Shown here piece after piece: positions 2,417-8,695 of a DNA stretch of 33,569 nt. Made by a program: the position numbers and the translations under genes. Within the stretch, counting starts at the first letter, position 1. Each line of letters starts with the position of its first letter. Under the pieces are notes generated by a model. That model did no database searches. It was not told the DNA's origin and worked only from the letters and a program-made list of their open reading frames with translations. The DNA is from a virus (lineage: Duplodnaviria > Heunggongvirae > Uroviricota > Caudoviricetes), in the IMG/VR virus record IMGVR_UViG_3300045988_135277, positions 1 to 33,569 of that record; one strand, written 5' to 3'.

Positions 2417-3106
2417 CTACCCATGCTTCCTATACGTCTGCGGCATGCTTCCAATGACTTTCCCGAAGATAAACACCCGGTTCATCTCGTCTTTCTCGAT
2501 CGGGTCCCACGGTGAGTAGCTCTTGTTATCAGAGATGACCAGCAGCTTATCCTTCATCATTTGCAGGCGCTTTACATGGGCTGTGTCGTCGTACAGAAAC
2601 GCATAGATACCATCACCGTCGAAAGATTTAACTGTGATATCAACGAACAGCAGATCACCAGGTTCGATCGTTCCTGACATGCTGTCACCACGCACGTTAA
2701 TGATGCGGATATTTTCCGCCTTCCTACCATCGAACATGTGACGAGCATCGTCAAACGAGTACTCAACCGAGCGTAGAACTTCTACAAACTCACGGTTGAT
2801 GACTCCCGGCCCGGCACTGACTTCTATATCAAGAACGTCAATTTTGAAGTATTTGGAATGGCTGACAGTTGATTGTATTGGTTGCACTGTACTGTCTGAC
2901 ATATTTCCAACGCCAGAAGATAACCATTCTGCGCGCACACCCAAAGCGTTCGCGATCTCCACGATTTTAGTTGTTTGGTTAGCTTTCCCTGTTTCGATTT
3001 TCTGAATAGCAGCCTGGCTAACCCCGACCAAATCCCCAAGCGCCTTTTGTGTAAGGCCTCGCGCTAATCTGGCTTCTTTAAGTCTTTCTGAGAGTGTTGT
3101 TTTCAT
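2417..3106 (-). CDS. cI: CI-type prophage repressor (N-terminal HTH, C-terminal LexA/S24-like autocleavage domain)
   Basis: N-terminal HTH motif (LTQKALGDLVGVSQAAIQKIETGK), C-terminal GDSM serine and downstream Lys typical of S24 peptidase fold; divergent to cro across an operator-bearing intergenic region. Confidence 0.92.
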   Translation of the reverse strand: MKTTLSERLKEARLARGLTQKALGDLVGVSQAAIQKIETGKANQTTKIVEIANALGVRAEWLSSGVGNMSDSTVQPIQSTVSHSKYFKIDVLDIEVSAGPGVINREFVEVLRSVEYSFDDARHMFDGRKAENIRIINVRGDSMSGTIEPGDLLFVDITVKSFDGDGIYAFLYDDTAHVKRLQMMKDKLLVISDNKSYSPWDPIEKDEMNRVFIFGKVIGSMPQTYRKHG

Positions 3107-3210
3107 AGATCAAATGTACAACCAAGGTTTTATTTCATCAAACGAAAATGGTTGTTGACTAAAAACAACCATAGTTTTAATCTTGATTCGGATTAACCAC
3201 GGAGGTTGTT
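3107..3210. promoter_or_regulatory. OR operators with PR (-35 TTGACT 3155-3160, -10 TAATCT 3178-3183) and PRM region
   Basis: Divergent cI/cro intergenic region; palindrome TGGTTGTT-N7-AACAACCA overlapping -35/-10; GGAGG RBS before cro ATG. Confidence 0.6.
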
Positions 3211-3441
3211 ATGAACCCAGCAATCAAAACAGCGATCAATATCGTTGGTTCACAAAAGAAACTAGGCGATGCCTGCGAAGTTTCACAGCAGGCCGTCTAT
3301 AAGTGGCTTCACAACAAAGCAAAGGTATCCCCTGAACATGTCGGCAGCATTGTTACGGCTACTGGTGGAGTTGTGAAGGCATACCAGATTCGCCCGGATC
3401 TTCCGAAGTTGTTTCCACACACCGAAAAGAACGCAGCTTAA
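3211..3441 (+). CDS. cro: Cro-like HTH regulator (76 aa)
   Basis: Small HTH protein transcribed divergently from cI immediately after PR; RBS GGAGG. Confidence 0.85.
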   Translation: MNPAIKTAINIVGSQKKLGDACEVSQQAVYKWLHNKAKVSPEHVGSIVTATGGVVKAYQIRPDLPKLFPHTEKNAA

Positions 3442-3453
3442 ATTTCCATTTCA

Positions 3454-3466
3454 CGCTCTTTAACAA
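3454..3466 (+). promoter_or_regulatory. boxA-like element (nutR-type antitermination site)
   Basis: CGCTCTTTAACAA matches the boxA consensus; located between cro and the next gene as nutR is in lambda; no convincing boxB hairpin identified. Confidence 0.45.
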
Positions 3467-3510
3467 TAAGCAATCAACTTAACAGTCAATTCAAACTAAA
3501 GGAGTCAATT

Positions 3511-4050
3511 ATGCAACCACTTACATACCAACAGACTAGCGGATTTATTCCGACTGCGGTGATAAATCGTTCTCAAACAAAACAAGCTCCAGGCCACGAA
3601 AAAATCCGTGATGCCGTCCGCGCCTGGTCGGCTGTAGATAATCAGGATGTCGTTGCCGCACTCATTGTGAATGAGTATCGGGAGCAGGGCGACGGCACCA
3701 TCGATTTCCCTGATGATGTCAGCCGTGCACGCCAGAAGCTGTTCCGCTTCCTCGATAACAAATTCGATTCTGAAAAATACCGAAATAACGTGCGTGAACT
3801 GACCCCGGCAATTCTGGCGGTACTACCGCTGGAATATCGCGGCCACCTGGTTGAGCAGGATAGCTTCATGGCTCGGCTGGCTGAAATGGAAAAGGAACTC
3901 AGTGAGGCAAAACAGGCTGTCATTCTCAACGCACCACGCCACCAGAAACTGAAGGAGATGAGTGAAGGCATTGTGTCGATGTTTCGTGTGGACCCGGATC
4001 TGGCTGGTCCACTGATGGCGATGGTCACCAACATGCTGGGGGCAATATGA
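3511..4050 (+). CDS. hypothetical protein in the cII slot (179 aa; possible lysogeny regulator, family not recognised)
   Basis: ORF track; RBS AAGGAG upstream; position between cro and O. Confidence 0.75.
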   Translation: MQPLTYQQTSGFIPTAVINRSQTKQAPGHEKIRDAVRAWSAVDNQDVVAALIVNEYREQGDGTIDFPDDVSRARQKLFRFLDNKFDSEKYRNNVRELTPAILAVLPLEYRGHLVEQDSFMARLAEMEKELSEAKQAVILNAPRHQKLKEMSEGIVSMFRVDPDLAGPLMAMVTNMLGAI

Positions 4051-5066
4051 CAGGTTCGGAAATGGCGAAAGCCGGTCTGCGCGAACAGAACCGACTTTCA
4101 GGTGCAAATCGTAACACACTCATTGCGGGAGGAATTATGGCAAACACTGCTGAGATATTCAATTTTCCAGTGCCGGATGTGGCACAAAAGGAGCCGCGCG
4201 TGGCAGATCTCGATGATGGTTATACGCGCATTGCAAATGAGTTGCTGGAAGCTGTGATGCTGGCCGGATTAACACAGCACCAGCTTCTGGTCTTCCTGGC
4301 TGTCATGCGCAAAACATATGGCTTTAATAAAAAACTGGATTGGGTGAGCAACGAGCAACTTTCCGAGTTGACCGGGATATTGCCGCACAAGTGTTCTGCT
4401 GCAAAAAGTGTTCTGGTAAAGCGTGGGATTCTTATTCAGAGCGGGCGGAATATCGGCATCAATAATGTGGTCAGTGAATGGTCAACATTACCCGAATCAG
4501 GTAAGAAAAATAAAGTTTACCTGAAAGAGGTAAATTTACCTGAATCAGGTAAGAAAAGTTTACCCAAATCAGGTAAAGGCACTTACCCGAATCAGGTAAA
4601 CACAAAAGACAAACTAACAAAAGACAATATAAAACCTTATTCGTCCGAGAATTCTGGCGAATCCTCTGACCTGCCAGAAAACGACCTTCCTGTGGTGAAA
4701 GCGGATGCTGCGATTCAGAGCGGCAGAAAGTGGGGGACAGCAGAAGACCTGACCGCCGCAGAGTGGATGTTTGACATGGTGAAGACCATCGCGCCATCAG
4801 CCAGAAAACCGAATTTTGCAGGGTGGGCTAACGATATCCGTCTGATGCGTGAACGTGATGGACGTAACCACCGCGACATGTGTGTACTGTTCCGCTGGGC
4901 CTGCCAGGACAACTTCTGGTCCGGTAACGTGCTGAGTCCGGCCAAACTCCGCGACAAGTGGACCCAGCTCGAAATCAACCGGAACAAGCAACAGGCTGGC
5001 GTGACAGTCGGCAAACCAAAACTCGACCTGACAAACACTGACTGGATTTACGGGGTGGATCTATGA
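4047..5066 (+). CDS. O: replication initiator O-like protein (iteron-binding N-domain, lambda-type C-terminal region)
   Basis: Contains internal iterons (ori) as lambda O does; immediately upstream of and overlapping lambda P; N-terminal region has O-like motif LLxxxLxxxQxxVLLAxxRKTYGxNK. Confidence 0.9.
   Translation: MTGSEMAKAGLREQNRLSGANRNTLIAGGIMANTAEIFNFPVPDVAQKEPRVADLDDGYTRIANELLEAVMLAGLTQHQLLVFLAVMRKTYGFNKKLDWVSNEQLSELTGILPHKCSAAKSVLVKRGILIQSGRNIGINNVVSEWSTLPESGKKNKVYLKEVNLPESGKKSLPKSGKGTYPNQVNTKDKLTKDNIKPYSSENSGESSDLPENDLPVVKADAAIQSGRKWGTAEDLTAAEWMFDMVKTIAPSARKPNFAGWANDIRLMRERDGRNHRDMCVLFRWACQDNFWSGNVLSPAKLRDKWTQLEINRNKQQAGVTVGKPKLDLTNTDWIYGVDL
4489..4600 (+). repeat. ori: five ~19-bp iterons TTACC(C/T)(G/A)AATCAGGTAA(G/A) inside O, followed by AT-rich stretch 4601-4650
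   Basis: Direct repeats at 4489-4506, 4516-4534 (degenerate), 4535-4553, 4558-4577, 4582-4600, each internally palindromic (TTACC...GGTAA), ~22-23 bp apart; encode repeated PESGK peptide in O. Confidence 0.75.
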
Positions 5067-5764
5067 AAAACATCGCCGCACAGATGGTTAACTTTGACCG
5101 TGAGCAGATGCGTCGGATCGCCAACAACATGCCGGAACAGTATGACGAAAAGCCACAGGTACAGCAGGTAGCGCAGATCATCAACGGTGTGTTCAGCCAG
5201 TTACTGGCAACTTTCCCGGCGAGCCTGGCTAATCGTGAGCAGAACGAACTGAACGAAATCCGCCGCCAGTGGGTTCTGGCTTTCCGGGAAAACGGGATCA
5301 CCACGATGGAACAGGTTAACGCAGGAATGCGCGTAGCCCGTCGGCAGAATCGACCATTCCTGCCATCCCCGGGACAGTTTGTAGCCTGGTGCCGGGAAGA
5401 AGCATCCGTTATTGCCGGACTACCAAACACCAGCGAGCTGGTTGATATGGTTTACGAGTATTGCCGGAAGCGTGGCCTGTATCCAGATGCAGAGTCTTAT
5501 CCGTGGAAATCAAACGCGCACTACTGGCTGGTTACCAACCTGTACCAGAACATGCGGGCCAATGCGCTTACTGATGCGGAATTACGGCGCAAGGCTGCCG
5601 ATGAACTGGCCTGTATGACCGCGCGAATTAACCGTGGTGAGGCGATACCTGAACCAGTAAAACAACTTCCTGTCACGGGCGGTAGACCTCTAAATCGTGC
5701 ACAGGCTTTGGCGAAGATCGCAGAAATCAAAGCTAAGTTCGGACTGAAAGGAGCAAGTGTATGA
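5063..5764 (+). CDS. P: replication protein P (DnaB helicase loader), lambda-type
   Basis: 233-aa protein recognised as near-identical to lambda P from memory (MKNIAAQMVNFDREQMRRIANNMPEQYDEK...). Confidence 0.95.
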   Translation: MKNIAAQMVNFDREQMRRIANNMPEQYDEKPQVQQVAQIINGVFSQLLATFPASLANREQNELNEIRRQWVLAFRENGITTMEQVNAGMRVARRQNRPFLPSPGQFVAWCREEASVIAGLPNTSELVDMVYEYCRKRGLYPDAESYPWKSNAHYWLVTNLYQNMRANALTDAELRRKAADELACMTARINRGEAIPEPVKQLPVTGGRPLNRAQALAKIAEIKAKFGLKGASV

Positions 5765-6063
5765 CGGGCAAAGAGGCAATTATTTATTACCTGGGGACGT
5801 ATAAGAGCTTCTGTGCGCAGGACGTTGCCGCGGTAACAGGCGCTACAGTAACCAGCATAAATCAGGCTGCGGCTAAAATGGCGCGGGCAGGAATCTTGGT
5901 CATTGATGGTAAGGTCTGGCGAACGGTGTATTACCGCTTCGCTACCAGGGAAGAACGGGAAGGAAAGGTGAGCACGAATCTGATTTTCAAGGAGTGTCGC
6001 CAGAGTGCCGCGATGAAACGAGTGTTGGCAGTGTATGGAGATATGAACTTAAACTTGCTGTGA
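5761..6063 (+). CDS. ren: Ren-like protein (Rex exclusion escape)
   Basis: N-terminal ~90 aa recognised as lambda Ren-like (MTGKEAIIYYLGT...VWRTVYYRFATREERE); overlaps P stop as in lambda. Confidence 0.85.
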   Translation: MTGKEAIIYYLGTYKSFCAQDVAAVTGATVTSINQAAAKMARAGILVIDGKVWRTVYYRFATREEREGKVSTNLIFKECRQSAAMKRVLAVYGDMNLNLL

Positions 6064-6311
6064 CGGTTTTCATCGGTAACACACCATGTAATCTAGCAGT
6101 CAGCTTAGAAATAGGAGCGGCAGTTAAAGATTTTTCAGTTAGTAGAAAATTACTGTTATTGCAGGGATCTAATCACCGGAGAGTCGTTCCATTTGTCTTA
6201 TGATTACCTGATGTCCGTTAGTTCGTTGGTAATCACCGTTTTTGTTAGAGAAGTAAGCATCGCTGACAAAATATTCTCAACGATGCCTGCTTTATTGCCA
6301 CTACAAATTAA

Positions 6312-7814
6312 TTAAATTGCATCTGCAAACTCTGGGGTTTTTCGCTCAGGTATAATTGATGAGTTGTTGTTGTCACTTTTTTTATTTTCATGATTACGAA
6401 TAGCCAATGACTCATTAAAGTCTTTTGCGACTGCTGTCTCAATAAATTCAATTTCTGAATCAGAGTGTTTTTTAAGAGCTTCTTTGATCTCATCCAGAGT
6501 AACATAGAAAAACTCTTTTCTACGATTTACAAGATTGACTCTCTTTTTATCGAAGACATCATGTAGTTTTTTTTCTAATGATGGAGCGTCCTCCGAATAA
6601 ATCATAGCATGCACATCAAAAATAAATGGAACAGATGCATCACCGAGCTCATTTACACGGTCTTGCGGATCAAGACGTCGTGTCATGCCTATTTTATAAA
6701 CATTCTCCCCAAAAGAACCTATGTTCGAAATAATATAAACATGACCTTGTTTGGTTTGTTGTGCCATGGATAATGCTCTTTGATGCTTTGATTCAGCCTG
6801 CGACAAACTCTGTTCTAGTTCGGCAATGCGATTTTCGAGGCGTTGCTTCATGTCACCAGTAACTTTTTCCATTTCCTTTCTTGCAGCTTCAATTGCTTTT
6901 TTATAACGGCGCTCTTCTGCCTCTGCGTCTTGCATGGCCTTTTCTATTTCTCGTTGTGCACGCTCCTCCTCTCTCATTTGTGCCCTTATTTCTGCCTGTT
7001 CTTCTTTTTCTTTCTGTTTTTGCTCACGATATTCATGGGTAAGCCACAATTCCTCAAGTTTTTTATTGAGGTATTTAGTGTTTATATATATGTGATTTTG
7101 CTCGTTTAGTTTATTTATGGCCTCAAATGCCTTTGTGATGCGTTCTTCCATTTTAGTGATATTTTTCCACGTGCAATTGCTAATTGCAGCATCACATTCA
7201 TTATTAAATGCTCTAGTAGTTAACCTGATATTTCTGTCTGTCATTTTTTTACCCTCTGCTCGAGAGCCTTCAACAGTCCATTGGGTTGTACAATATACTG
7301 CGCCAGAGTGGGTTTTATCCCGCAGCATTAATTTCTGTTCATCCCTGATGGATTTTATTTTGTTTTTAAATTGCTCTGAATCTTCAAAATTAAAATGAGG
7401 TTCGTAAAATCCTAGCTCGGCTAGCTCAACATCTTCTGAATAAATAGAAATTTGCCTTACTAGTTTATCATATATTTCTTTCTTCTCTTTATAAGTTCTT
7501 CTTAGCTCTTGGATTTGTTTATTGATACCATCCATTTTTTCAATGGTGTTTGTTAGTTCATTATTGGCATTTTCTTTTGCTTTTTGGGATTCTTCTTTTA
7601 TTATGGAGCATTCTTGCTCTGTTTTCTCAATAAGCTTCTTACATTCTTCTTCTACATTAAAATAATCTGCAAAGCGAGATTTGTATTCTTCATTTTTTTG
7701 ATTGCTATCACTTAATTCTAATTGTATTTTTTTGATGCGTTTGATTGCAGCTATATAAAGAACAAGAACAACCAATAAAAATATGATTGCAAGTAATAGT
7801 GGAGTTTGAGTCAT
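6312..7814 (-). CDS. membrane-anchored coiled-coil protein with C-terminal T5orf172 (GIY-YIG-like) domain, 500 aa (DUF4041-like architecture)
   Basis: N-terminal TM helix (LLLAIIFLLVVLVLYIAAI), ~300 aa K/E-rich heptad-like region, C-terminal motif GHVYIISN...YKIGMTRR...PF...LH..F...R...EFF matching T5orf172 consensus; antisense, AT-rich, flanked by ~250 and ~425 bp noncoding DNA. Confidence 0.9.
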   Translation of the reverse strand: MTQTPLLLAIIFLLVVLVLYIAAIKRIKKIQLELSDSNQKNEEYKSRFADYFNVEEECKKLIEKTEQECSIIKEESQKAKENANNELTNTIEKMDGINKQIQELRRTYKEKKEIYDKLVRQISIYSEDVELAELGFYEPHFNFEDSEQFKNKIKSIRDEQKLMLRDKTHSGAVYCTTQWTVEGSRAEGKKMTDRNIRLTTRAFNNECDAAISNCTWKNITKMEERITKAFEAINKLNEQNHIYINTKYLNKKLEELWLTHEYREQKQKEKEEQAEIRAQMREEERAQREIEKAMQDAEAEERRYKKAIEAARKEMEKVTGDMKQRLENRIAELEQSLSQAESKHQRALSMAQQTKQGHVYIISNIGSFGENVYKIGMTRRLDPQDRVNELGDASVPFIFDVHAMIYSEDAPSLEKKLHDVFDKKRVNLVNRRKEFFYVTLDEIKEALKKHSDSEIEFIETAVAKDFNESLAIRNHENKKSDNNNSSIIPERKTPEFADAI

Positions 7815-8239
7815 TCGTGCTATTCCTTACGGACAATTTAAGACGTTTTTATTAAATCCTGTTCAATGTGTATGCGGGTGATTGCCACCGCTTACAATCT
7901 TCATAATTATCAGTTAGATAGACTCTCTAGTAAATAATTTCATTTTTTGCAATATTCTTGTTTAATATTTCAATTTATGAAATGAACTCTTTATCCTTTC
8001 AAGGCGAAAGGTTTCTTCTTCGGAAATATTTGCTCTCGTGTGACGTATAAAGACCTTTGATTTTCAAAAATCAGTAGGGAATAATATAGTTACTGTCGGC
8101 CTGAACACCCGGTGGTGGGGTTGCGCTAAACGGGGACGTTTATGCGCACATACAATCCAAACTCTCTTCTCCCTTCACAGATGCAGAAATGCACCTGCAA
8201 TTCTTTGCATCTAGCGTTTGACCTCTGCGGAGGTGAAGC

Positions 8240-8695
8240 GTGAACCTCCCACAAGACGGTATCAAATTGCATCGCGGTAACTTCACCGCTATCGGTCAGC
8301 AGATCCAGCCTTATCTGGAGGACGGAAAATGCTTTCGCATGGTGCTTAAACCGTGGCGCGAGAGACGCAGTCTTTCCCAGAATGCACTCAGCCACATGTG
8401 GTACAGCGAAATCAGCGAGTACCTCATCAGCAGGGGGAAAACGTTCGCTACTGCAGTATGGGTAAAAGATGCACTCAAACACACTTATCTCGGTTATGAA
8501 ACCAAAGAACTGGTTGATGTCGTAACCGGTGAAATCACCACCATTCAGTCATTACGTCATACCTCCGATCTCGATACCGGAGAGATGTATGTCTTCCTGT
8601 GTAAGGTTGAAGCCTGGGCGATGAATATTGGCTGCCACCTGACTATTCCGCAGAGCTGCGAGTTCCAGCTGCTGCGCGACAAGCAGGAGGCGTAA
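8240..8695 (+). CDS. NinB/YbcN-like protein (151 aa)
   Basis: GTG start with GGAGG RBS; motif [15 protein letters not shown] resembling the NinB family; gene order ybcN-ninE-ybcO-rusA-ylcG as in DLP12. Confidence 0.8.

Follow-up and report, generated by a model that had tools for sequence, protein, structure and literature searches.

At the ren-nin junction of this lambdoid prophage lies a lone gene, oriented against its neighbors, which raises the question of what it encodes and how its product would act. In the ORF listing of the window (the whole stretch of DNA analyzed, 33,569 nucleotides), a minus-strand ORF of 500 aa with an ATG start (6312..7814) is the sole sizeable ORF between ren and the nin block, both on the plus strand, exactly as the original prediction had it (Table 1). 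We conclude, with a probability of roughly 93%, that this gene is a prophage copy of SNIPE (formerly PD-λ-1) and acts as the published nuclease defense. SNIPE is not a new system: earlier work identified it, gave it its name, and worked out its mechanism (Vassallo et al. 2022, PMC9519451; Saxton et al. 2025, preprint, bioRxiv 10.1101/2025.11.03.685801), and the window adds another natural copy.

Table 1. Features of the SNIPE locus, in window positions.
Feature	Position	Strand	Details
ren	5761..6063	+	100 aa; last 7 codons (from 6041) part of the inserted module
Low-GC mosaic module	6041..8055	n/a	~2.0 kb; carries the SNIPE expression unit
Candidate terminator hairpin	6251..6292	-	20-60 nt downstream of SNIPE stop; inverted repeat and folding
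SNIPE/PD-λ-1 CDS	6312..7814	-	500 aa; stop codon 6312-6314
T5orf172/MUG113 (GIY-YIG-type) nuclease domain	6468..6746	-	residues 357-449
Globular DUF4041 ('SNIPE') domain	7080..7388	-	residues ~143-245
N-terminal TM anchor, predicted	7740..7805	-	residues 4-25, TPLLLAIIFLLVVLVLYIAAIK, then basic RIKK
Candidate sigma-70 promoter for SNIPE	7906..7934	-	TTTACT-17-GATAAT; consensus match only
orf33	8142..8243	+	33 codons; shared with phage 82; RefSeq WP_001303586.1
ybcN/orf151	8240..8695	+	NinB/Orf-family gene; first of the nin block

Variable cargo at the ren-nin junction

Across the SNIPE region, GC content dips to 0.28-0.43 from ~0.5 on both sides, in agreement with the AT-rich surroundings originally described, and the inserted module as a whole has 35.1% GC compared with 50.6% for the window. 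Comparison with related prophages, which had been suggested as a means of defining the junctions, gave sharp breakpoints at 6040/6041 and ~8056: homology to other lambdoid phages ends at ~6040-6043, inside the final codons of ren (annotated as 'protein ren' in near-identical genomes), and restarts at ~8056 with phage-82-type nin region homology. Alignment of Ren and its DNA placed the end of identity with both lambda and PhiR30_1 at 6040/6041, and the C-terminus reads ...AVYGDMNLNLL in the window, ...AVYGVKR in lambda, and ...AFYRGNFQ in PhiR30_1. The earlier suggestion that the Ren tail here may differ from that of lambda therefore proved right.

The ren-nin junction had been described as a variable insertion point, and the cargo found there does differ among lambdoid phages. 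It is empty in lambda, holds NinA in SfI, an HNH endonuclease together with Lar in PA28, and an acyltransferase together with a lipoprotein in PhiR30_1, while in a genome with the same backbone as the window, SNIPE is replaced by ead/Ea22-like genes. SNIPE is not a core gene, because among 5,426 complete E. coli genomes only 131 have 80% or more of the region. By its breakpoints, patchy presence, and atypical GC, the SNIPE locus is variable cargo (a 'moron') at the lambdoid ren-nin junction, and the gene itself is a self-contained antisense moron of the prophage.

To the right of the module, a promoter-like site (8057-8090, promoter scan) precedes orf33, whose stop overlaps the start of ybcN. 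Since this 33-codon ORF lies inside the ~425-bp right flank, the claim that the flanks are noncoding does not hold on that side. The nin block opens with a gene that had been labeled ninB; its product matches PHROG 72 at 175 bits but Pfam NinB at only 21 bits, under the cut-off of 23.8, and its RefSeq name is 'DNA base-flipping protein YbcN'. The family in that label stands, whereas the subtype is YbcN/orf151. We considered treating 'ninB' as a misnomer and dropped the idea, because a YbcN/orf151 subtype of the NinB/Orf family makes the label acceptable.

Identity and integrity of the SNIPE copy

The profile search suggested with the original prediction (Pfam T5orf172, DUF4041, and PADLOC) returned strong matches throughout. 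Both PADLOC models for PD-Lambda-1 matched essentially end to end (PDLC03976: 656 bits, E 1e-197, residues 1-485, 491-position model; PDLC03977: 645 bits, E 2e-194, residues 7-497, 496-position model), and PHROG 1847 scored 652 bits with the window protein. What had been proposed as a single-gene defense factor with a membrane-tethered nuclease-like effector is, by this full-length match, SNIPE/PD-λ-1. RefSeq and precomputed Pfam labels use 'SNIPE' for the protein and the domain, DUF4041 having since been renamed "SNIPE".

The closest comparison is with prophage PhiR26_1, a lambdoid prophage in which an annotated PD-lambda-1 likewise adjoins ren, in the same orientation and with near-identical flanks. 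The two proteins are identical at 496 of 500 positions (99.2%) and differ by Q77L, A79V, L447V, and N483S. The cloned PD-λ-1 came from ECOR26 (RCP76574.1; gene of 1,503 nt), and from the phage name and the gene length we take the PhiR26_1 allele to be the studied ECOR26 allele. The ECOR26 protein shares with the window protein its length of 500 aa and its order of TM helix, stalk, DUF4041, helix, and T5orf172/GIY-YIG domain. Judged by sequence, the window gene belongs to the PD-λ-1 family over its full length, with the profile, DUF4041, T5orf172, E414, and its own flanks all present.

The elements that would control the gene also appear to be in place. In the original PD-λ-1 work, an upstream flank of 282 bp sufficed for native expression; the equivalents of the 282-bp and 62-bp flanks of the original cloned fragment are ~98% conserved relative to PhiR26_1 (278 of 283 aligned columns identical upstream, 61 of 62 bases downstream). 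A promoter scan located the candidate SNIPE promoter within this upstream flank, ~90 nt before the ATG, with 9 of 12 consensus matches. The module is a single-gene unit with no partner ORF. In the convergent gap between ren and SNIPE, a strict terminator scan found no terminator; the hairpin listed in Table 1 is a candidate one, possibly bidirectional, with a folding energy of -22 kcal/mol (z = -4.1) as minus-strand RNA and -16.1 (z = -2.8) on the plus strand. A plus-strand terminator-like hairpin at 7995-8011 was rejected because its folding did not exceed that of shuffled sequence (z = -0.7), and Rfam, scanned over 5900-8400 with E values as high as 1 allowed, gave no RNA family.

The four substitutions, or loss of a ~1.85-kb Rha-containing segment that lies between SNIPE and ybcN in PhiR26_1 and is missing from the window, could in principle have left an inactive or drifting copy by abolishing the gene's function or its expression. 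We consider this very improbable. The ORF is uninterrupted over its full length, and the changes spare every invariant and published functional residue; each of the nine that the SNIPE paper singles out (L253, E264, K305, E223, T319, W257, I308, N250, and E414) is kept. The conserved upstream 282 bp lie wholly before the Rha segment. Moreover, public databases contain the exact protein from at least 25 contigs, within a cluster of 975 members at 90% identity, and SNIPE is kept in prophage remnants without replication genes, a pattern that argues for selection.

Domain architecture and proposed action

SNIPE in the window is predicted to have a single N-terminal membrane anchor. The best 19-residue Kyte-Doolittle window spans residues 6-24 (mean 3.37) and is followed by KRIKK, and AlphaFold2 models a helix from residue 4 onward, both of which accord with the hydrophobic helix first noted. 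A heptad-like segment of ~300 residues had been described behind it; the model retains the long helices but not their continuity (~26-133 and ~246-355, split by a globular domain at ~143-245, pLDDT >90), the interruption being the domain that contains DUF4041. The Pfam core of DUF4041 falls at residues 198-252 (nt 7059-7223; PF13250, 70.4 bits, cut-off 27), and E223, N250, L253, and W257 of this region are unchanged relative to published SNIPE. As a whole, the model runs from TM helix through helical stalk, globular domain, and second helix to an α/β domain, in agreement with the published description.

The C-terminal domain, predicted earlier to be T5orf172, scored 61.5 bits with that Pfam family (cut-off 20; residues 357-449) and 68.1 bits, likewise above the cut-off, with MUG113, two families that matched all 16 of the C-terminal domains scanned and that we take to belong to the Pfam GIY-YIG clan. 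The canonical GIY-YIG model PF01541 gave no direct match in the same Pfam scan. Motifs of the nuclease type are present as GHVY (357-360), YKIG (373-376), RR (379-380), E414 (nt 6573-6575), and N427/N430; across 59 homologues (49%-56% identical), G357, H358, Y360, K374, G376, R379, R380, E414, N427, and N430 do not vary, and position 373 is Tyr in the window protein and Phe in some homologues. The domain has a β-β-α-β-α topology in the AlphaFold2 model, and its conserved Tyr, Arg, Glu, and Asn probably map onto the canonical GIY-YIG positions. In this predicted order of the core it would resemble I-TevI, the UvrC N-terminal domain, and Slx1, with Tyr, Tyr/Phe, Arg, Glu, and Asn placed as expected, although these canonical nucleases are soluble repair or homing enzymes rather than membrane-anchored proteins. 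An HHpred result in the SNIPE preprint supports the GIY-YIG assignment (Saxton et al. 2025).

Fold and structure searches were less informative. When the full-length model was run against the PDB with Foldseek, the only compact superpositions were on Slx1 chains, at non-significant E values of 0.4-0.6, and a domain-only C-terminal model was poor, at pLDDT 61, from a shallow alignment with 61%-71% identity to the query. Sequence searches against solved structures returned no significant match for the full protein or the C-terminal-domain profile, and no close relative with a deposited structure is detectable in this way.

These sub-threshold fold matches could be read to mean that the protein is not a nuclease but either regulates through DNA binding or has a structural role in the membrane, a reading also encouraged by the first annotation of T5orf172 as a DNA-binding domain, by family members named 'Bacteriophage T5 Orf172 DNA-binding domain', 'chromosome segregation ATPase', and 'chromosome partitioning protein ParA', and by a weak likeness to SMC-like coiled coils. 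It is extremely improbable. The Pfam scan contained no ATPase domain, and the SMC-like matches are low-scoring coiled coil far under their cut-offs; NCBIfam yielded nothing beyond such far-sub-threshold coiled-coil similarities (an SMC-related protein, Rad50, and MazE), which were rejected as compositional. The GIY-YIG-type motif residues, in contrast, are invariant, and E414A in the near-identical published protein abolishes DNA cleavage, toxicity, and defense (Saxton et al. 2025).

The published system is a GIY-YIG nuclease of the inner membrane, which cuts phage DNA as it is being injected (Vassallo et al. 2022; Saxton et al. 2025), a mechanism also covered by a 2026 review. Its N-terminus is periplasmic and the remainder cytoplasmic, its DUF4041 domain binds DNA and the tape-measure protein, and it protects against λ and other siphoviruses, while the tested myoviruses are not stopped (Saxton et al. 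2025). SNIPE separates self from non-self by the location of DNA, not by sequence or modification, as has already been published. Following this literature on a near-identical protein, SNIPE in the window would be expressed constitutively in the lysogen under its own promoter, with the nuclease kept away from the chromosome, and would already be associated with the mannose permease ManYZ before a phage infects. Once infection is under way, the DUF4041 domain would touch the tape-measure protein and DNA of the incoming siphovirus, and the C-terminal GIY-YIG-type nuclease (E414) would then cut the phage genome as it is injected. Because the cell would survive, this would be direct defense and not abortive infection, and induction of the resident prophage would be unaffected. 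Given the 99.2% identity, the window copy probably has the same activity and siphovirus-biased range, and would protect the lysogen and its prophage against lambda-like and other siphoviruses.

Abortive infection is the mode of action of many single-gene prophage defenses with nuclease domains. A membrane nuclease that is freed or activated on infection, degrades host DNA, and kills the cell is nonetheless scarcely credible here: a version lacking the TM helix is indeed toxic and causes double-strand breaks in host DNA, but cells with the near-identical intact protein survive infection and reach confluence even at high MOI, unlike the abortive control PD-λ-3, labeled phage DNA is degraded, and host DNA forced to the membrane adds no toxicity (Saxton et al. 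2025).

As a membrane-located defense that targets incoming phage DNA at the injection site, SNIPE resembles Zorya (ZorABCD) and Kiwa (KwaAB), according to the SNIPE paper and the 2026 review. Unlike SNIPE, these are multi-gene systems of unrelated proteins that sense membrane perturbation, and Kiwa binds DNA whereas SNIPE cuts it; in PADLOC, the window protein matched ZorA only at E 0.023, at the level of coiled coil. [quoted passage not shown] However, they are small, unrelated in sequence, and block injection without a known nuclease, whereas SNIPE admits the DNA and then cuts it.

Carrier prophage and possible mobility of the module

From 2700 to 8210, the window is collinear with PhiR26_1 at 98.1% identity. 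The two carriers differ, however, in their tails: the prophage here has a contractile-tail late module, while the tail genes of PhiR26_1 are of the lambda siphovirus type. This copy is mildly new only in its contractile-tail carrier, a class of phage reported to lie outside the range of SNIPE. It is possible, although we regard it as unlikely, that the module moves autonomously between lambdoid backbones and that its carriage by a contractile-tail hybrid prophage is no accident. On this reading, since the tested myoviruses are not stopped by SNIPE, a myovirus-tailed carrier could arm its host against competing lambda-type siphoviruses and its own virions would still infect SNIPE-bearing non-immune cells, an asymmetry that would be closed to siphovirus carriers such as PhiR26_1. 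Equally unlikely is the alternative that the four substitutions shift the range of phages affected.

This copy yields a correct annotation of the locus and base-level limits for a ~2-kb mobile module at the ren-nin hotspot. The presence of the SNIPE module on siphovirus-tail and contractile-tail backbones, as well as in decayed prophages, fits a host-beneficial, horizontally exchanged defense cassette.

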